Below are positions 733-63,115 of a DNA stretch of 64,000 bases, in pieces. The notes beneath the pieces were generated by a model, which was given only the letters and a program-made list of their open reading frames with translations, ran no database searches and was not told the origin of the DNA. The position numbers and the translations under genes were made by a program. This DNA is from Escherichia coli (lineage in GTDB: Bacteria; Pseudomonadota; Gammaproteobacteria; Enterobacterales; Enterobacteriaceae), in assembly GCA_005400705.1 (NCBI GenBank), contig GCA_005400705.1_4079.1. One strand, given 5' to 3'. The stretch's first letter is position 1, and each line of letters opens with the position of its first letter.

Positions 733-3700
733 ATGTATATCGATGCTTATATGGAACGTAAACGTACTGGTGATATTCTTCATGTAGTTGAACGTAAGAA
801 TGGTAAACGTATTCTACGCGAATTAGAACCAGTATATGAATATTATGTTGAATCCCCACAAGGAACACATAAAACTGTTTATGGTACAATGGCTAAACAT
901 TTTGAGTTTCAAACTCAAGCTCAAATGAATAAAAGTGTAGAGCAACACAAAAGTGAAGGTCTACGTATTTTTGAAAGTGATTGTAACATTACATTTAAAA
1001 CATTAGCTAAAGAATATATGGGAAAAGGTTCACCCGATTTGAACATCGTGTTCTTCGATATCGAGACTGATTTCCATAAGAAATTTGGTTATGCTCCACC
1101 ATCAGACCCGTTTAACCGAGTAACCGCTATTTCTCTATATCAATCATGGACTGGAAAGGATTATGTACTTACTTTACCACCTGCTGATATGGAAATTTAT
1201 GAAGCACAAGATATTGTTCGCCAACTAAATGAAGAAACAAACGATCCTAACAGTACTGTAATTTTATATACAGACGAAAAGGAAATGTTTATGGAATTCT
1301 TTAGTTTAATTGATGATTCTGATGTTATTTCAGGATGGAATAGTGAATTCTTTGATATTCCATATATGATCAATCGAACTAAAAAAATCTTCAATGAAGC
1401 AACAACTGCTCGTTGGTGTTTATGGAATAAAAAACCAAATTCACGTGAAGCAGACAACTTTGGTAAAACTGTTCAAACATATGATCTGGTAGGTCGCGTC
1501 CATCTTGATTATTTGGCTTTGTATAAGAAACATGCTGGTCAAGTTGAACAATCTTATAAACTAGATTATATTGCTGAAAAAGTAACTAAAGAAAATAAAG
1601 TATCATATGAAGGTTCATTGGATAAACTTTACAGAGAGGATTACATTACTTTCTTGCGTTATTCTAAACAGGATAGTATTCTTCTTAAAAAGATTGATGC
1701 TAAATGTGACTATATCAACCTACACAATCGACTTGCACACAAAGAATGTGTACTTATCAGTACAACAATGGGTTCAGTAGCACTAATCGACACTGCTATT
1801 ATCAACTTAGCACATACTCGTGGTGAAGTTGTTTTCAACAAAGCACCGAAAGATGATCTTGAGTTTGATCCAGAAATGGAATATTATGGTGAAGATGGTG
1901 AAGATGAAGATGAGAAAATTAGTGCAAAAGCAGCAGGTGCATGGGTACAAGATCCAGTACTAGGACTTGTAAGTGACCTTGGGTGTACTGACTTTAACTC
2001 TCTTTACCCTACTGTTCTACGTACTTTGGGTATGAGTACTGAATGTATTCTTGGTCAATTACGTCAAGATTACACCGATGCGTATCTTGCAGCTAAAATC
2101 CAAGAACAGAAGAACAAATCTAAATCTAAATCATTTGAACCAGATTGGACTGCGGCATGGCATGGTTTATTTGCTGCTGTTGAATTTACAATGGTTCATG
2201 AAAAGTCAGAAGAAACATTGATTGTTGATTTAGAAGATGGGAGTTCTTTTAAAGCAACGGGCAAAGAGCTATATGATATTATTTTTGCAGAAGATAGTAC
2301 TATTGTACTTAGTGCAAACGGAACACTTTTTGATAAGTCTAAGTCTGGTGTAATTCCTGACATTCTAACTCAATGGTATTCTGAACGTAAAGCACAGCAA
2401 AAAATGGTCATTGACTACAAACATATGTATACTGATGGTTGGGAGTTTAATGGCTATGAAAAAGTCGAACCACTACTATCAAACTATACCCCTGGTACAA
2501 TGTTTAGAACTAATATTCATGATAATGATCCTGTATACTTACTTCGTAAAGAAATTGGTAAAGGACAGTGGGATGAAGTTGCTAAGTTGATTGTAGAAAA
2601 CGGATTAGTACTAAAAGATGGTCGTATTTTCTGTCCTAAAGAAGAAAAAGATTACTTCAAACAACGTAGTGCTTTCTGGAAACAGAACCAACAGATTCGT
2701 AAGATTCTTCTAAACAGTCTATATGGTGCACTATTGAACAAAGGTTCTCGTTTTTTTGACAAACGTTTAGGTCAATCCGTAACATTAACTGGACGTTCTA
2801 TGACCAAACATATGGCAAGTCGTATCAATGAAATTACTACTGGTGTATATAACCACCAAGGTGGTTCAGTAATTTATGGTGATACTGACTCAGTTTACTT
2901 TAGTGTAACTCATTATCTGAAAGAACAAGGTATTCCATATAATCTATCTAAAGAAGAGATTGTTGATATGTATATTAAAATTGGTGAAGAAGTTGGTGAA
3001 TCTTTCCCATCATTTATGCATGAGATGTTCAACACTGGTATTGAAAAAGGTAAGATTGTTGGTGCAGACCTTGAGATGGTTGGTTCGCGTGGCCTATTCT
3101 TGAAGAAAAAACGTTATGCAATTCTGAAGTACTGGGAAGATGGGTTCCGTAAAGATATTGATGGTAAACCAGGTGAAATCAAAGCGATGGGTCTTGAAAT
3201 TAAACGCTCAGACACGCCAAAATACATCCAGAACTTCCTAGAAGAGACTCTAATCGCATTACTGGTAGGTGAGAGTGAACAACAGCTAAAACAGCGTGTA
3301 CGTGAGTTTAAGGACGTATTTAAGGATATGCCTGTACATGAAAAAGGTTCACCAAAAACTGTAAAAAACTACACTAATTTAGAGGCTGAATATCAGCTAA
3401 CTGGTAAGTGTAAAGTTGGTCACGTTCTTGCTGGTATCCAATGGAACCGTCTACGTGAAGTTTATGATGATAAATCTGTTCCAGAAGTAACAGATGGAAC
3501 AAAAGTAATTGTCTGTAACTTAAAAGATAATCCTATGGGAATTAAAGCAGTTGGTTATCCAATTGACTGTGTTGAGTATCTTCCAGAATGGTTCTTGGAA
3601 CTACCATTTGATACTGAAAAAATGGAAGAGATTGTTCTAACTAAAAAATTAGAGAATATTTTTGGTATTTTGGATATGGATATTGGTATTCATGAAAAAA

Positions 3701-3738
3701 GTACTGCGTCAGTAAACAATGGATTCTTCACTTGGTAA
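733..3738 (+). CDS. DNA polymerase, family B (T4 gp43-like) with 3'-5' exonuclease domain
   Basis: FFDIETD (Exo I), YSKQDS (Exo II), DFNSLYP (motif A), KILLNSLYG (motif B), YGDTDS (motif C) in 1001-aa ORF. Confidence 0.95.
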   Translation: MYIDAYMERKRTGDILHVVERKNGKRILRELEPVYEYYVESPQGTHKTVYGTMAKHFEFQTQAQMNKSVEQHKSEGLRIFESDCNITFKTLAKEYMGKGSPDLNIVFFDIETDFHKKFGYAPPSDPFNRVTAISLYQSWTGKDYVLTLPPADMEIYEAQDIVRQLNEETNDPNSTVILYTDEKEMFMEFFSLIDDSDVISGWNSEFFDIPYMINRTKKIFNEATTARWCLWNKKPNSREADNFGKTVQTYDLVGRVHLDYLALYKKHAGQVEQSYKLDYIAEKVTKENKVSYEGSLDKLYREDYITFLRYSKQDSILLKKIDAKCDYINLHNRLAHKECVLISTTMGSVALIDTAIINLAHTRGEVVFNKAPKDDLEFDPEMEYYGEDGEDEDEKISAKAAGAWVQDPVLGLVSDLGCTDFNSLYPTVLRTLGMSTECILGQLRQDYTDAYLAAKIQEQKNKSKSKSFEPDWTAAWHGLFAAVEFTMVHEKSEETLIVDLEDGSSFKATGKELYDIIFAEDSTIVLSANGTLFDKSKSGVIPDILTQWYSERKAQQKMVIDYKHMYTDGWEFNGYEKVEPLLSNYTPGTMFRTNIHDNDPVYLLRKEIGKGQWDEVAKLIVENGLVLKDGRIFCPKEEKDYFKQRSAFWKQNQQIRKILLNSLYGALLNKGSRFFDKRLGQSVTLTGRSMTKHMASRINEITTGVYNHQGGSVIYGDTDSVYFSVTHYLKEQGIPYNLSKEEIVDMYIKIGEEVGESFPSFMHEMFNTGIEKGKIVGADLEMVGSRGLFLKKKRYAILKYWEDGFRKDIDGKPGEIKAMGLEIKRSDTPKYIQNFLEETLIALLVGESEQQLKQRVREFKDVFKDMPVHEKGSPKTVKNYTNLEAEYQLTGKCKVGHVLAGIQWNRLREVYDDKSVPEVTDGTKVIVCNLKDNPMGIKAVGYPIDCVEYLPEWFLELPFDTEKMEEIVLTKKLENIFGILDMDIGIHEKSTASVNNGFFTW

Positions 3739-3749
3739 GGAGTAATAAT

Positions 3750-3899
3750 ATGGTTATTGTAAATGAAATTGAACTAAACTATGACGAAGTAAACGATACT
3801 TTCACTAATGAGATGTTGAATCTTACTGAAGAAAGTGTAAATGAGGCATGGGAAAAATATGTAGAATGGACTTCATTACAAGGTAAAAATGATGAGTAA
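3750..3899 (+). CDS. hypothetical small protein (49 aa, not in ORF track)
   Basis: AAGGAG-like RBS then ATG at 3750; stop overlaps next start. Confidence 0.3.
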   Translation: MVIVNEIELNYDEVNDTFTNEMLNLTEESVNEAWEKYVEWTSLQGKNDE

Positions 3900-4188
3900 T
3901 ATATATAAGCGTATTGGTGAAGTATTAGAAGGCAATGGTATCATTAATTCTGTACTAGCATATGATAATGATGAAGAAGTAGTTCTAATTGGTGCGGGTT
4001 TTACTCGCACTGGTTCAGTGGAAGTTGACGGAGAGATTGCTGATGTTTACACTCTTGTGAAAAAGCGTAAAGTTGTTTTTGTCGATGATGTACATACATT
4101 AAAAGACTTGAAAAAATTACGAGATAAAATTGGCATGAGTTCTACAATTGATAAGCCTTATCTTCAACGTTGGAATACAAAATACTGA
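3889..4188 (+). CDS. hypothetical protein
   Basis: 99-aa ORF, same strand, tightly packed. Confidence 0.45.
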   Translation: MMSNIYKRIGEVLEGNGIINSVLAYDNDEEVVLIGAGFTRTGSVEVDGEIADVYTLVKKRKVVFVDDVHTLKDLKKLRDKIGMSSTIDKPYLQRWNTKY

Positions 4189-4195
4189 TAAAAAA

Positions 4196-27828: not shown

Positions 27829-28496
27829 ATTACGAATATGATCAACAATCAGTTAATCAGATGGCTGATTTGTTAAGTGGATTGAATGACATTGAAGCTG
27901 GTGAAACACATAACGCATCGGGGGTTCCATATAAAACTGGTGGTGATATCGGTGCTATGGCTTCTATTTTAACTTCATTAAATGAAGCAGGTATGGATTA
28001 TGGTGAACCACAACATCCACATATGGTTCAATACAATTCTCCGTATAATGAACATTTATCAGGGAATTCACCAGTACCTTCGCCACGACCATCACAAGCA
28101 CCTATTAAACCAAAAACTAATTGGAGTTTAGTGGAAGAAAAAGTACAAGGTACTAAATCTACTAAAGTTTATAGCATTAAGTGTAATCATAGTTCACAAA
28201 TTATCATGAATAATATTATGATGTATGAAGCAGCACTTACATTAGTTAATCTTCTCAATGAAGGAAGAATGTTGACAGATGCAAAAGTACTTGGTATAAT
28301 CAGTTCGGGTCTTCAATACACGAATGTGATTAGTGAAGCATTGAAAGCAGCCCAGAAACGTCAACGCGTACTTAATGAATCGAAGTATGATGAAGCAAAA
28401 GATTTAGATATAATTATTGCAGAAAAGAAAGCTGAAGCGTATAAATTAAAAGAGCGTGTATTAAACTTTCTAAAAGGCGAAGGTTATATAAAGTAA
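27825..28496 (+). CDS. hypothetical protein
   Basis: 223-aa ORF. Confidence 0.45.
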   Translation: MNYEYDQQSVNQMADLLSGLNDIEAGETHNASGVPYKTGGDIGAMASILTSLNEAGMDYGEPQHPHMVQYNSPYNEHLSGNSPVPSPRPSQAPIKPKTNWSLVEEKVQGTKSTKVYSIKCNHSSQIIMNNIMMYEAALTLVNLLNEGRMLTDAKVLGIISSGLQYTNVISEALKAAQKRQRVLNESKYDEAKDLDIIIAEKKAEAYKLKERVLNFLKGEGYIK

Positions 28497-59436: not shown

Positions 59437-59465
59437 TTGACTATCATACGTGCTGCCCGTATAAT
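59437..59465 (+). promoter_or_regulatory. sigma70-type promoter (TTGACT-17-TATAAT)
   Basis: TTGACT 59437-59442, TATAAT 59460-59465. Confidence 0.5.
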
Positions 59466-59513: not shown

Positions 59514-60650
59514 ATGTCCGAGAAAGAAATCAATCCTAAAAAAGCATCCACCGCAGCTAAATCAGCAAAACGCACTACTAAAACTGCGTCTAAAGGTCAT
59601 ACAATTGATGCAAGTGATATTTTTAACCAAACTACAAAATCACTACCAGTACTGAAAGATGTTAAGGGAAATACTATGTCTCTAACAGTTCAAAACATCA
59701 ATACTGTTGGTACAACTGCTGGTGCTGCTGTTGGGCGTTTGGCTGATGAAATTATGTCTAAAGTTAATGTAACGGATGACAATACCGAGTTTGGTAAATC
59801 AATCACCACAATTCTTACGTTGACTCGTGCAGTTGATATTGACAGTCTTCAAGAAGATAAATCAATTGTTGGTCGTATTAAGAAATTCTTTGTTAATGCT
59901 CAACAGAAAGTAGGTGATCAGTACAAAAACAGTAAAGAGCAAATTGACGAAATTATGAAAACTCTTCAAACTGGTATTAATCGCCAGCACGGAGAATGTG
60001 AATGGCTTGATAAAGCATATAATGAAAACAAAGAATATTTGTTTGAATTACGTGATACATTAGTTGGTTTAGAAGAAGTAACTAAAACACAAGATGCATT
60101 ATTATTAGAAATGCAAGCAGACAAAAATGTAGACTCTTTTGCTATTCAAGAGCAAAAGATGATTTGTGAAGCACTTTCTAAACAAGAAGATAAGATTCGT
60201 CGTCTTATCATGATGTGCGAGCTAAGTGGTCCACGTTTGATGAGTATGAAAAAAGTAAACTTGAACACTGTTTCTAAGTTTGAAGATTTAAAATCTGTTG
60301 TTATTCCAGCATGGAAGTCTCAATTGGCTGAACAGTTAATTTCCGAGCGTCAACGTAAGGATAATGAACTAGGCAATCTAATTGATAATGAGACAAACCG
60401 TCTTTTGGAAACTAACTCTAAAATGGTTGCAGCAAATATGTTGGACGCAGCAAAGGCAAACAACCGTGGTATTGTGGATATTAAAACCTTGCGTAATGTA
60501 CATAAAACGATGATTGACAGTATTGAAGCAGTTATTGAAGAAGAGAAAAAAGGTAAATTGGAACGTGAACGTGCTAAACAGGAAATTGCACAACTTTCCT
60601 ATGAACTGGAAGACACTCTTCGTGAAATTGCCGAAAAAGCTAACAAGTAA
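59514..60650 (+). CDS. hypothetical coiled-coil protein
   Basis: 378 aa, Lys-rich N-terminus, long helical heptad regions. Confidence 0.5.
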   Translation: MSEKEINPKKASTAAKSAKRTTKTASKGHTIDASDIFNQTTKSLPVLKDVKGNTMSLTVQNINTVGTTAGAAVGRLADEIMSKVNVTDDNTEFGKSITTILTLTRAVDIDSLQEDKSIVGRIKKFFVNAQQKVGDQYKNSKEQIDEIMKTLQTGINRQHGECEWLDKAYNENKEYLFELRDTLVGLEEVTKTQDALLLEMQADKNVDSFAIQEQKMICEALSKQEDKIRRLIMMCELSGPRLMSMKKVNLNTVSKFEDLKSVVIPAWKSQLAEQLISERQRKDNELGNLIDNETNRLLETNSKMVAANMLDAAKANNRGIVDIKTLRNVHKTMIDSIEAVIEEEKKGKLERERAKQEIAQLSYELEDTLREIAEKANK

Positions 60651-60653
60651 TAG

Positions 60654-60682
60654 TTGACATATGAGTGCGTTTTTAATATAAT
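60654..60682 (+). promoter_or_regulatory. sigma70-type promoter (TTGACA-17-TATAAT) embedded in hairpin
   Basis: TTGACA 60654-60659, TATAAT 60677-60682 in loop of hairpin 60664-60705. Confidence 0.5.
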
Positions 60683-60705
60683 CTTATTGAAAACGCACTC
60701 TTTTT
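60664..60705 (+). terminator. hairpin + T-tract enclosing promoter -10
   Basis: gagtgcgtttt ... aaaacgcactc arms, TTTTT after. Confidence 0.4.
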
Positions 60706-60729: not shown

Positions 60730-61419
60730 ATGAAACGTCGTCATATTAGTGTTGATATCGAAGCTCTTGGAACACCTGAACTTTCCGGTTATGATATTAT
60801 TATCCCAAATTACGCAGCAGTAGTAGTTCCAAGTAAACCTGAAAATGACATTCGTCAGTTCTTATATATTAAATTACCATACCAGGATCAAGTTGCTGCT
60901 GGTTTAAAATCAGACGCAGGTGCAATGGATTTTTGGATGAATACATGTCAGAAAGAATACCCTAATGCATATTCTGAAGTTGCCAGTACTATGAAACTCA
61001 AAGCACCTGAACTGTATGGACCGAATGGTCAATCACGACGATTTTTTGCATACAGTAGTATTGTTGATTTCTGGAAAGAATTACGTTACAATGATTATGG
61101 TGAAGAAGTTCCTCATTCAGTCTGGGGCAACGGATGTAACTTCGATTGTAGTATTTTACAAGCAAACCATTTAAAACTAATGAACGCTGGTGAGTTGTGG
61201 AAGTATGATGCACCTGAAAATGCACGCACATTGAAACGTTTATTGAATGAAGAAGCTCGTATTGAAATGGATGAAATCGTTTCGGTACAGTTGGATAAAT
61301 TTATCACATATGCAAATACGTGTGGGATTAATGGGTTGGAGTTACATCACCCACTGTTTGATGCAGCACGTGAAGCAATCCAGATTTCATTCTGTCTAAA
61401 CAAGCTTAAAATGGATTAA
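60730..61419 (+). CDS. DEDD-family 3'-5' exonuclease (DexA-like)
   Basis: ISVDIEALGT (DxE), WGNGCNFDCSIL, HHPLFDAAREA (H-x4-D). Confidence 0.6.
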   Translation: MKRRHISVDIEALGTPELSGYDIIIPNYAAVVVPSKPENDIRQFLYIKLPYQDQVAAGLKSDAGAMDFWMNTCQKEYPNAYSEVASTMKLKAPELYGPNGQSRRFFAYSSIVDFWKELRYNDYGEEVPHSVWGNGCNFDCSILQANHLKLMNAGELWKYDAPENARTLKRLLNEEARIEMDEIVSVQLDKFITYANTCGINGLELHHPLFDAAREAIQISFCLNKLKMD

Positions 61420-61422
61420 TAC

Positions 61423-62517
61423 ATGAATTTCATTATTCTGTTAATACCTGCTCTTATCGTTGTATTCGTTATGAAATACATGTACGATAAGCATATCAGT
61501 ACTAAAGAACTATTGATTCATATTGGTTGTTGTCTGGTTGGTGCGGCTCTTGTTCTTGGTATTTCATACGCAATCAACTATAGCCAGCTTTATGATGTTG
61601 AGATTCTGAATGGTCAAGTAACTTCAAAATACAGCCACAAAGAATATTGCACACAATCTAGTTCATGTAAGCACTATACATGGCATGAGAAGTGCCATAC
61701 GCGATATGATAGTAAAGGTAAATCACATCGTGAGTGTGAATCATATAAGGTTTTTGATTACTCATATGAAGTTGATTGGTATGTGAAAAGTACAGTAGGT
61801 GAGTTTGAGATTGAACGTGTGAACCGTCAAGGTACAATGACACCACCACGTTGGCAGCAAGTTATGATTGGTGACTATGCCGCCGCAGAGAGTTCATATA
61901 TCAACTATCTATTTGCTGATAAGAACTCATTGTTTAGTCCTGAAGAACTACACAACATGTATGATGAAAAGTATCTTAGTACTATTCCAGAATACCCAAG
62001 TGTAGTTGATTATTACAAAACACATCACGTAATTAACACTACAAATTACAACGTTGATGGTTACGATGAATACCTTCGTAATGAGCTAAAAACGATGGGT
62101 GCACGAAAGCAGGTAAACATCCAAGTACTAGTTTATGATTACAAAGATGTGGATTTTGTTGATGCTACCCTTGCATCGTGGCGTGGTGGTAAGAAGAATG
62201 ATGTTATTATGTTCTTTGGTATTGACAATGATGGTAACGTTGTCAAATTTTACAGTACATCATTTGCACAAGGAATGAAGAATGAAGAGTTACATGCAAA
62301 GATGCGTATTGATGCATTAAATGAAAAATTAACTCTTGACTTACTAGTTAAAGAAGTACATAATATTGACACACAGTTTGAGAGACTCTCTAATAAAGAG
62401 TTTGAGTACTTGTCAGTAAAAATGGAACCTAGAAAAGATGTTCTTATCGGTGCTTCCATTGTGTTGTTGATTCTGTCTATTTTCATTGGCCTTTATATGA
62501 GGGATAACGATTTATGA
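61423..62517 (+). CDS. membrane protein (N- and C-terminal TM helices, Cys/His-rich central domain)
   Basis: N-terminal IILLIPALIVVFV and C-terminal LIGASIVLLILSIFIGL hydrophobic segments. Confidence 0.5.
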   Translation: MNFIILLIPALIVVFVMKYMYDKHISTKELLIHIGCCLVGAALVLGISYAINYSQLYDVEILNGQVTSKYSHKEYCTQSSSCKHYTWHEKCHTRYDSKGKSHRECESYKVFDYSYEVDWYVKSTVGEFEIERVNRQGTMTPPRWQQVMIGDYAAAESSYINYLFADKNSLFSPEELHNMYDEKYLSTIPEYPSVVDYYKTHHVINTTNYNVDGYDEYLRNELKTMGARKQVNIQVLVYDYKDVDFVDATLASWRGGKKNDVIMFFGIDNDGNVVKFYSTSFAQGMKNEELHAKMRIDALNEKLTLDLLVKEVHNIDTQFERLSNKEFEYLSVKMEPRKDVLIGASIVLLILSIFIGLYMRDNDL

Positions 62518-63068
62518 ATGGTAAACTCCTTGCGTTAATTGGTATTTTGGTAGTTATCGTACTAATGGTGTTTGGTTCTATTAGTATGTATGTTGGTGCA
62601 CATGATCGTGCAGTTGAGTTTGAAGGAAACATTAAAAAGTACTATGATGCATCTGAAAGTCAACTTAGCAATTATACTCTTACTATTCAAGATAAGGTTC
62701 AAGTAGCAGATAAGTACAAAAATGCGTTGAAAGAAACGATTGAGTCATACTTTAAAGGGCGTGAAGGTGTTGACCAGAAGTTTGTAATGTCACAGATTCA
62801 ACAACAGGTTCCAAATCTTGATCCTAAAATTTATCAGGAATTGATGGTGACAATTGAAGCAGGACGTACAAAGTTCAACAATCTTCAGAAAATGAAAATT
62901 GACCAGTGTACTGATTATGCTAAGTTCCGCAAAGGCTTCTGGAATTCCAAAATTCTTGATTCGAATACGTTTCCAAGTGAAAATATTGAACACCTTTGTA
63001 CAGTAGTATCTGATACACGTACCAAGAAAGCAATGGATACTGGTATTCAAGAATCAATTAAACTATAA
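62514..63068 (+). CDS. N-terminally membrane-anchored protein (LemA-like topology, tentative)
   Basis: LLALIGILVVIVLMVF TM then helical domain; ATGA overlap with upstream membrane protein. Confidence 0.45.
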   Translation: MNGKLLALIGILVVIVLMVFGSISMYVGAHDRAVEFEGNIKKYYDASESQLSNYTLTIQDKVQVADKYKNALKETIESYFKGREGVDQKFVMSQIQQQVPNLDPKIYQELMVTIEAGRTKFNNLQKMKIDQCTDYAKFRKGFWNSKILDSNTFPSENIEHLCTVVSDTRTKKAMDTGIQESIKL

Positions 63069-63077
63069 TTAAATGTT

Positions 63078-63102
63078 GGGAGTACTTTGTACTCCCCTTT
63101 TC
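63078..63102 (+). terminator. rho-independent terminator
   Basis: gggagtac-ttt-gtactccc + TTTT. Confidence 0.55.
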
Positions 63103-63115
63103 TATGGGGTGTACT

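Follow-up and report, generated by a model that had tools for sequence, protein, structure and literature searches.

The bacterial envelope contains many proteins of unknown function, and LemA proteins, first described in the 1990s, and TPM proteins belong to the commonest of them. Here, we describe two overlapping phage genes, A and B, which very probably encode a membrane pair of the LemA and TPM-fold types. Both lie in a stretch of 64,000 nucleotides from an Escherichia coli assembly (GCA_005400705.1, contig GCA_005400705.1_4079.1), from here on the window, which corresponds to an Asteriusvirus jumbo myovirus: the 4.8 kb around the pair show 99.1-99.6% identity to 20 database records, PBECO4 among them, and 98.3% identity to phage 121Q. 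The sole LemA member tied to a cellular process is MamQ, in magnetosome membrane formation (PMC4902198). For TPM proteins, a chaperone-like role toward membrane complexes has been proposed (PMC11237479 and PMC13456599), and the characterized ones are extracytoplasmic factors that bind photosystem II (TLP18.3, Psb32, and LMTP1) or the mycobacterial CIII-CIV supercomplex.

A sample of ten bacterial LemA loci, taken from annotated plasmids and chromids, confirms that LemA and TPM are often encoded side by side. A TPM-domain gene adjoins LemA in five of them (Legionella, E. faecalis, Ralstonia, B. longum, and L. johnsonii), being the commonest neighbor in the sample, and the Ralstonia locus carries YgcG plus a second TPM protein. 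The other neighbors are the HtpX/M48 membrane protease in two loci (Listeria and B. ovatus), DUF3137 in one (Thermus), and uncharacterized proteins in the remaining two, Citrobacter being one of these. Since LemA has several alternative partners, a role as a general adaptor for membrane-anchored proteins is suggested. In the Citrobacter portucalensis IncF plasmid (2344-3980 of the locus), the stop codon of the gene for a 355-residue protein overlaps the LemA start; this protein was considered as a bridge to A and rejected, being unrelated to it.

In the window, two open reading frames for proteins of 364 and 184 amino acids, joined by an ATGA overlap, are present exactly as the initial annotation had described them.

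61423-62517, + strand: gene A, membrane protein of 364 amino acids (121Q gp68; phrog_2087)
62514-63068, + strand: gene B, putative single-pass LemA-like protein of 184 amino acids (121Q gp69, 'LEMA protein'; phrog_1383)
62514-62517, + strand: start/stop overlap ATGA, with the ATG of B over the TGA of A

A Shine-Dalgarno-like GAGG is located about 10 nucleotides upstream of the ATG of B. Both are real genes, conserved at the protein level in 486 (A) and 483 (B) of 50,697 GenBank phage records, that is, about 1%. Regarding existing labels, 121Q has gp68 as 'hypothetical protein' and gp69 as 'LEMA protein; bromodomain-like fold', and PHROGs gives A an unknown function and B the label 'virion structural protein'.

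The association between the two genes is very strong. Of 89 phage loci, with identities down to about 27%, 88 have a homologue of B downstream of A and on its strand; the single locus with A alone ends at the contig edge. Like bacterial LemA, whose neighbor may be TPM, HtpX/M48, DUF3137, or another protein, B is encoded beside a membrane-anchored partner. In the 88 loci, an overlap or a gap of 25 nucleotides or less is the commonest spacing, with one or a few small genes occasionally inserted. A scan of viral contigs found 197 relatives. Moreover, four contigs with a distant A in unrelated gene contexts each carry a gene for a protein of about 186-198 amino acids downstream, directly in three of them and after a gene for 117 amino acids in the other. 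No third conserved neighbor was found among 39 diverse loci. The lineages with the pair comprise the Ackermannviridae (Vi01, CBA120, and LIMEstone1), Asteriusvirus and other Rak2-like phages, Aeromonas Aeh1-like phages, Agricanvirus, Vibrio ICP1, Acinetobacter phages of about 100 kb, Sinorhizobium and Agrobacterium jumbo phages, and the Lak megaphages. A-B is, then, a self-contained two-gene cassette shared by hundreds of large virulent phages with Gram-negative hosts.

Copies are also seen in bacterial assemblies, whose matches were examined in part. Among genome and metagenome-assembled genome (MAG) loci, A and B occur together in 16 of 26, and at least six others end too near A or are unscorable. 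The pair is present in assemblies of Achromobacter anxifer and Variovorax sp. WDL1, the Achromobacter copy, which adjoins YqaJ and RecA genes, being probably a prophage. Also, MAGs of the candidate phyla radiation (CPR; Peribacteria, Uhrbacteria, Gracilibacteria, and SR1) carry a longer, divergent A of 430-520 amino acids together with B, and one Uhrbacteria copy adjoins an ABC transporter.

The assignment of B to the LemA family comes from its layout and from family-level profile comparisons, which cover the following parts of the protein:

62526-62597, + strand: predicted N-terminal transmembrane (TM) segment of B, about residues 5-28 (Kyte-Doolittle scan and AlphaFold2 (AF2) model)
62598-62984, + strand: LemA-homologous helical domain of B, residues 29-157 (2etd_A profile match and hhalign)

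A single hydrophobic segment, N-terminal and spanning residues 1-31 in a Kyte-Doolittle scan, and an all-helical AF2 model with a predicted local distance difference test (pLDDT) score of 72.9 bear out the initial annotation of B as an N-terminal TM segment followed by a helical domain. With its 184 residues, B has the size and layout of LemA (about 180-200 amino acids, one N-terminal TM helix, and then a helical domain). The best Protein Data Bank (PDB) match of a broad B-family profile is 2etd_A, 'lemA protein', the LemA of T. maritima (2ETD; E 1.2e-4, query 29-157, and chain 9-154), the match covering the whole soluble domain. A narrow profile built from close relatives only does not find LemA in the PDB, so the broader alignment is required. 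In a comparison of the B family with seven canonical LemA sequences, drawn from annotated bacterial replicons, hhalign gives a probability of 97% (E 7.9e-11, 145 columns), in an alignment that begins inside the TM helix and therefore includes the TM segment. For the Pfam LemA model (PF04011), 17 of 60 B relatives match at E ≤ 0.01, below the gathering threshold of 26.2 bits (best E 1.9e-5); four distant relatives scored singly reach at most 24.6 bits, and the distant B partners in other phages are just under the threshold (E 2.5e-5 and 4.5e-3). Although the window protein has no Pfam match of its own, its family profile matches canonical LemA, and B is therefore counted as a LemA homologue; by these comparisons, it is a far-diverged, single-pass member of the family. 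MamQ belongs to the same family and differs from B in its insertion specific to magnetotactic bacteria (MTB), in its magnetosome partners, and in having no TPM partner. One metagenomic member of the B family (P0175) has 367 amino acids, twice the usual length, and a precomputed match to PF07460; it could be a fusion or a mis-called gene.

A is a more complex protein, for which the following features are recognized:

61423-61482, + strand: hydrophobic segment 1 of A, about residues 1-20 (helix 2-20 in the model; family mean hydropathy +2.26)
61510-61581, + strand: hydrophobic segment 2 of A, about residues 30-53 (Kyte-Doolittle scan, model, and family hydropathy)
61585-61902, + strand: predicted beta-rich domain of A, about residues 55-160, which holds the family-invariant D58, G64, and N161
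61636-61737, + strand: Cys/His-rich stretch of A, residues 72-105
62020-62382, + strand: predicted TPM-fold alpha/beta domain of A, about residues 200-320 (boundaries approximate)
62179-62202, + strand: signature W-x-G-G-K-K-N-D of A, residues 253-260 (N259 and D260 invariant in the family)
62437-62499, + strand: C-terminal hydrophobic segment of A, about residues 339-359; the short tail after it has a net positive charge in the family

The initial annotation had a Cys/His-rich domain between one TM helix at each end of A. Hydrophobic segments do occupy both termini, the number being three rather than two (1-22, 27-54, and 336-361 in a Kyte-Doolittle scan), and the Cys/His-rich part exists as a short stretch (Cys 76, 82, 91, and 105; His 72, 84, 88, 92, and 102) inside a two-domain region of about 280 residues and not as a domain that fills it. 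Each Cys column of the window protein is occupied in 28-38 of the 39 relatives; 5-7 Cys, including CxC and CxxC motifs, are common among them. The AF2 model of A, built on a 39-sequence alignment (pLDDT 91.2, predicted TM-score (pTM) 0.78), predicts in order two helices (2-20 and 27-54), a beta-rich domain (about 55-160) with strands at 57-75, 85-95, 101-111, 115-123, 126-130, and 152-160, an alpha/beta domain (about 200-320), a short helix, and a TM helix (338-361). No PDB match specific to the beta-rich domain was obtained and no known fold was recognized in it. The alpha/beta domain, on the other hand, is modeled with the TPM fold, at 9-13% identity to extracytoplasmic TPM structures.

Members of the A family were collected with the W-x-GGKKND motif as a search pattern, with a word-indexed search (97 proteins, down to 23% identity), and with an exhaustive profile search (2265 cluster representatives, 1030 of them at E ≤ 1e-30); the best 150 profile matches are nearly all 344-411 amino acids long and align end-to-end. 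Across the family, no Pfam domain is assigned. TPM_phosphatase (PF04536) is the commonest weak Pfam match, in three of 39 relatives at E ≥ 0.013, and window A has no match to this model. A as a member of PF04536 by sequence was rejected, the hhalign comparison with bacterial TPM proteins being non-significant, and the fold similarity alone was kept; because sequence methods give no confirmation, A is best called a TPM-fold protein and not a demonstrated PF04536 member. The same non-significant alignment places W-x-GGKKND on the conserved TPM loop W.vG..KNNGVL. As for DUF2207 (PF09972/PF20990), also named in the initial annotation, it is not supported, with no match for window A and one of 39 relatives touching DUF2207_C at E 0.013.

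A comparison of the phage pair with bacterial LemA (PF04011) and TPM (PF04536, YgcG-type) pairs shows the same general arrangement: the two genes lie side by side in one orientation and often overlap, one encodes a LemA-type protein of about 185 amino acids with one N-terminal TM helix, as in B, and the other encodes a partner with a membrane-anchored TPM-fold domain followed by a TM helix, as predicted for A. The initial reading of the locus as LemA plus a membrane partner was thus correct in substance, considering the hhalign match of B and the TPM neighbors of bacterial LemA. However, several differences are observed. Both phage proteins are below Pfam thresholds. At its N-terminus, A carries an additional TM hairpin, and it also has an added beta domain of about 105 residues that contains Cys, while it has no Gly-rich C-terminal tail such as that of YgcG-type proteins. 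Also, LemA is usually first in bacteria, whereas the TPM-fold gene is first in phages, an order shared by the L. johnsonii plasmid, where TPM is upstream of LemA. Likewise, the extracytoplasmic TPM proteins AtTLP18.3 (3PW9), Psb32 (8C7I), LMTP1 (9H70), AscF/DUF5130 (6ADQ_J), BA41/BA42, and Rhom172_1776 have no significant sequence-profile link to A, and none has the beta domain or the three-TM architecture.

The distribution of charges around the TM segments suggests that the soluble parts of both A and B face the periplasm. In 60 B relatives, the N-terminal stub has on average 1.07 Lys plus Arg and 0.08 Asp plus Glu, and the 15 residues after the TM segment have 0.72 and 2.03, respectively, for a net charge of about -1.3; this bias argues for an N-in/C-out orientation of B. 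For the A family, the 15 residues after the second TM segment have a net charge of -1.28, and the C-terminal tail, of +0.82; on this charge bias, TM segment 339-359, which follows the TPM-fold domain, may tether it on the extracytoplasmic side. Regarding cysteines, Cys132 and Cys162 of B are both present in 14 of the 60 relatives, both absent in 45, and single in only one, a co-occurrence compatible with a disulfide.

A comparison with Kuttervirus selz/SenALZ1 shows that the pair can be lost. In this phage, the homologues of A and B are gp080 and gp081 (2501-4195 of the locus), about 1.5 kb upstream of rIIA/rIIB. Both are found at 100% identity only in the wild type, in the near-identical isolate SeTs-2, and in the three larger CRISPR-reduced mutants. 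The five smallest viable mutants have lost both, with the genes on either side now joined, which matches the published spontaneous loss of 'genes 78-83' (PMC9825161). The smallest mutant, selz_497L, has a burst size of 194, compared with 622 for the wild type, with many other deletions as well (PMC9825161). Since the pair is lost in viable mutants, it is accessory, and B is no essential virion component: the homologues, being deleted in five viable selz mutants, are not required for infectious particles. Moreover, the cassette is kept by the well-studied ICP1, CBA120, and Vi01 lineages and yet is dispensable in the laboratory, and this combination of wide retention with laboratory dispensability indicates an accessory host-interaction function.

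The expression signals around the pair are the following:

60654-60682, + strand: sigma-70-type promoter sequence TTGACA-17-TATAAT, 12/12 match, 48 nucleotides upstream of the exonuclease gene
60730-61419, + strand: gene for an Rv2179c-like 3'-5' exonuclease (PF16473, 1.1e-8; PHROG 255, 'exonuclease')
62366-62394, + strand: putative internal promoter TTGACA-17-TCTAAT, inside A and 120 nucleotides upstream of the B start
63078-63104, + strand: hairpin resembling an intrinsic terminator, GGGAGTAC-TTT-GTACTCCC plus a T tract, 10 nucleotides after the B stop, where it would end transcription

The exonuclease gene is co-oriented with A and its stop is 3 nucleotides before the A start, and exonuclease-A-B would be a probable transcription unit starting at the 60654 promoter, with the internal site at 62366-62394 perhaps allowing B to be made independently of A. 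In the whole window, near-consensus sigma-70 promoters (one mismatch or less) number 13 on the + strand and two on the - strand, about three being expected per strand; examples on the + strand are those at 28272, 42474, 58230, 59437, and 60654, and three of the sites are perfect TTGACA-17-TATAAT. This excess on the coding strand argues for genuine host-polymerase (early) promoters, and suggests that a large gene block of the window is transcribed by the host RNA polymerase. In the intergenic region upstream of the exonuclease gene, a terminator-like hairpin with a 16-bp stem (60663-60700, + strand) lies over the 60654-60682 promoter, so that terminator and promoter appear nested at 60654-60700.

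Taken together, we lean towards A-B being a phage-borne, far-diverged variant of the bacterial LemA-TPM inner-membrane module with an accessory role. In this model, B would consist of a short N-terminal stub in the cytoplasm, a single TM helix, and the helical LemA domain, and A, its obligate partner, would have a two-TM N-terminal hairpin, an ectodomain of about 280 residues with a beta-rich, Cys-containing domain followed by the TPM-fold alpha/beta domain, and a closing C-terminal TM helix. Both proteins would be produced from genes transcribed early by the host RNA polymerase together with the exonuclease gene, with coupled translation, and would assemble into a single complex on the outer side of the cytoplasmic membrane. 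This complex would dock on, stabilize, or modulate a membrane-protein complex of the infected-cell envelope, by analogy with TLP18.3/Psb32 in photosystem II, AscF in the mycobacterial CIII-CIV supercomplex, and MOLO-1 in a receptor channel. Docking is the best supported mechanism because extracytoplasmic TPM factors bind membrane complexes, MamQ acts in magnetosome membrane biogenesis, and LemA is also paired with HtpX. As a result, the envelope of the infected cell would be conditioned or protected, possibly including exclusion of superinfecting phages or lysis timing, with a payoff that simple laboratory culture would not reveal, such as an envelope that stays intact through long infections. 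A periplasm-facing accessory function in the envelope is thus reasonably probable, and the most likely role is an accessory fitness function rather than a virion or replication function, but any one specific outcome, such as superinfection exclusion, is unlikely at best.

Several observations weigh against this interpretation. Direct Pfam, NCBIfam, and PADLOC hidden Markov model (HMM) scans of window A and B find neither LemA nor TPM, so that none of the profiles named in the initial annotation is detected directly, and window B has no match to PF04011 at E ≤ 1, below the Pfam gathering threshold. For A, the comparison of its family with four bacterial TPM proteins by hhalign has a probability of 0.4%, which is not significant, and the support for its TPM identity is the predicted fold only. 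Regarding topology, the loop between the first and second TM segments of A is neutral and the charge biases are modest; the covariation of the B cysteines may come from shared ancestry; and the odd Cys counts and CxxC/CxC motifs of many A relatives would fit zinc binding in the cytoplasm about as well as disulfides. Also, MamQ is the only LemA member with an assigned process (PMC4902198), bacterial LemA-TPM modules themselves being of unknown function, and several database records call B a 'virion structural protein'.

A more specific version of the docking model, in which A-B is a widespread and so far unrecognized accessory system of phages that hijacks or mimics the host LemA-TPM module and docks from the periplasm on a specific host inner-membrane complex, is doubtful. 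Its effect would be the exclusion of competing phages, or the maintenance of an intact envelope in a long-lived, heavily loaded infected cell. If this were true, phage genetics would provide the LemA and TPM families with their first assayable phenotype and a first binding partner.

Somewhat less likely is superinfection exclusion as the function of the pair, where a periplasmic A-B would block the genome entry or the wall-piercing step of a second phage, like Imm and Sp of T4. A predicted position on the periplasmic side of the inner membrane and the probable early promoter would be in agreement with it, as would the restriction of the pair to large virulent myoviruses of Gram-negative hosts and its dispensability in single-phage laboratory culture, a property of exclusion genes. 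Indeed, the T4 proteins Imm/Sp and RI/RIII are, like A-B, small inner-membrane or periplasm-facing accessory proteins that are dispensable in simple culture, although the likeness is a functional analogy only, with no sequence or fold relationship detected between them and A-B. No likeness to known exclusion proteins in sequence or fold was seen; PADLOC defence models have no match at E ≤ 1 for A, B, or their neighbors; and the homologous bacterial LemA-TPM modules look housekeeping-like, with no phage link. The predicted periplasmic topology, the sigma-70 promoter, the lack of linkage to structural genes, and the dispensability are consistent with exclusion or lysis timing, but the results point specifically to neither.

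An inverted topology is improbable. Here, the large domains would be cytoplasmic, the Cys/His cluster would bind zinc, and the pair would work from the cytoplasmic side of the membrane, perhaps by remodeling it, as proposed for MamQ, which is needed for magnetosome membrane formation (PMC4902198), or by tethering a cytoplasmic target. The CxC...CxxC arrangement and the odd Cys counts (5 or 7) of many A relatives, a weak profile match to LIM zinc-finger domains (E 0.2), and the dispute in the literature about LemA orientation (PMC3905215) would be explained in this way. However, the charge bias of both families favors an N-in/C-out B and an external A ectodomain, and window A has only four ectodomain Cys and no CxxC. 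Moreover, the bacterial TPM partners of LemA carry N-terminal signal-like segments, implying an extracytoplasmic location, and the solved TPM proteins are lumenal or periplasmic according to their descriptions.

Less probable still is a control of lysis timing, in which the pair would sense periplasmic signals and modulate the holin, like the T4 antiholins RI and RIII. Membrane-anchored proteins predicted to face the periplasm could play such a role, and the position of the Kuttervirus pair relative to rIIA/rIIB would fit, but there is no conserved linkage to a holin, endolysin, spanin, or any other gene and no similarity to RI or RIII; in addition, the genome-reduced mutant devoid of the pair completes lytic growth, though many other genes are also gone.

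An enzymatic function is even less probable than lysis control. In this case, the TPM-fold domain would act in the periplasm as a phosphatase or nucleotidase, activities reported for TLP18.3 and BA41, on a phosphorylated envelope or signaling molecule, and LemA would provide a membrane scaffold. The predicted TPM fold of A, its Lys-rich W-x-GGKKND loop, which is strictly conserved and occupies the place of the conserved TPM loop, and the phosphatase or ATPase/ADPase activity proposed for some TPM domains (cited in PMC11237479) speak for it. Nonetheless, the activity of TPM domains is weak and contested, with at least one TPM subunit described as having no metal and nucleotide binding (PMC13456599), and no catalytic residues could be mapped in A.

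Finally, a structural role of the two in the virion, which the PHROG and RefSeq labels give to B, is highly improbable: phrog_1383 is named 'virion structural protein' and many RefSeq/GenBank records repeat this label or 'putative structural protein', but the label is not traceable to proteomic detection, the protein is listed neither in the LIMEstone paper nor in a mass-spectrometry paper on Agricanvirus, B has a predicted N-terminal TM anchor and LemA homology, the pair is surrounded by early-type promoters and non-structural genes, and it is deleted in viable, plaque-forming Kuttervirus mutants.

In the literature searched on LemA with TPM, with jumbo phages, and with Ackermannviridae, no study of the phage A-B pair was found. 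The LemA label of B is already in a few GenBank records and is not new. On the other hand, the TPM fold of A, the occurrence of A and B as a fixed cassette in about 1% of sequenced phages, their match to the bacterial LemA-TPM module, and their dispensability appear undescribed in that literature. Phage deletions and plasmid expression would offer a tractable genetic handle on the role of the LemA-TPM module. Moreover, annotations are corrected for A ('hypothetical protein'), B ('virion structural protein'), and the neighboring exonuclease ('metallopeptidase'). This last gene is labeled 'metallopeptidase' or 'putative peptidase' in 121Q, PBECO4, phAPEC6, and UB, which, given its profile matches, looks like a propagated misannotation.

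No tRNAs were found in the 64-kb window. Two genes upstream of A, another gene of interest is located:

59514-60650, + strand: TelA-family ('toxic anion resistance') gene (PF05816, 2.2e-37; phrog_5890)

This gene has its own near-consensus sigma-70 promoter (59437-59465). TelA was considered as a third component of the cassette and rejected: TelA, a gene for a 375-amino-acid protein, and the exonuclease are found beside the pair in five of 39 diverse loci, all of the Rak2-like group, and because of this restriction TelA and the exonuclease are placed outside the module. TelA is nevertheless a second envelope-stress-type gene in the same early region as A-B.

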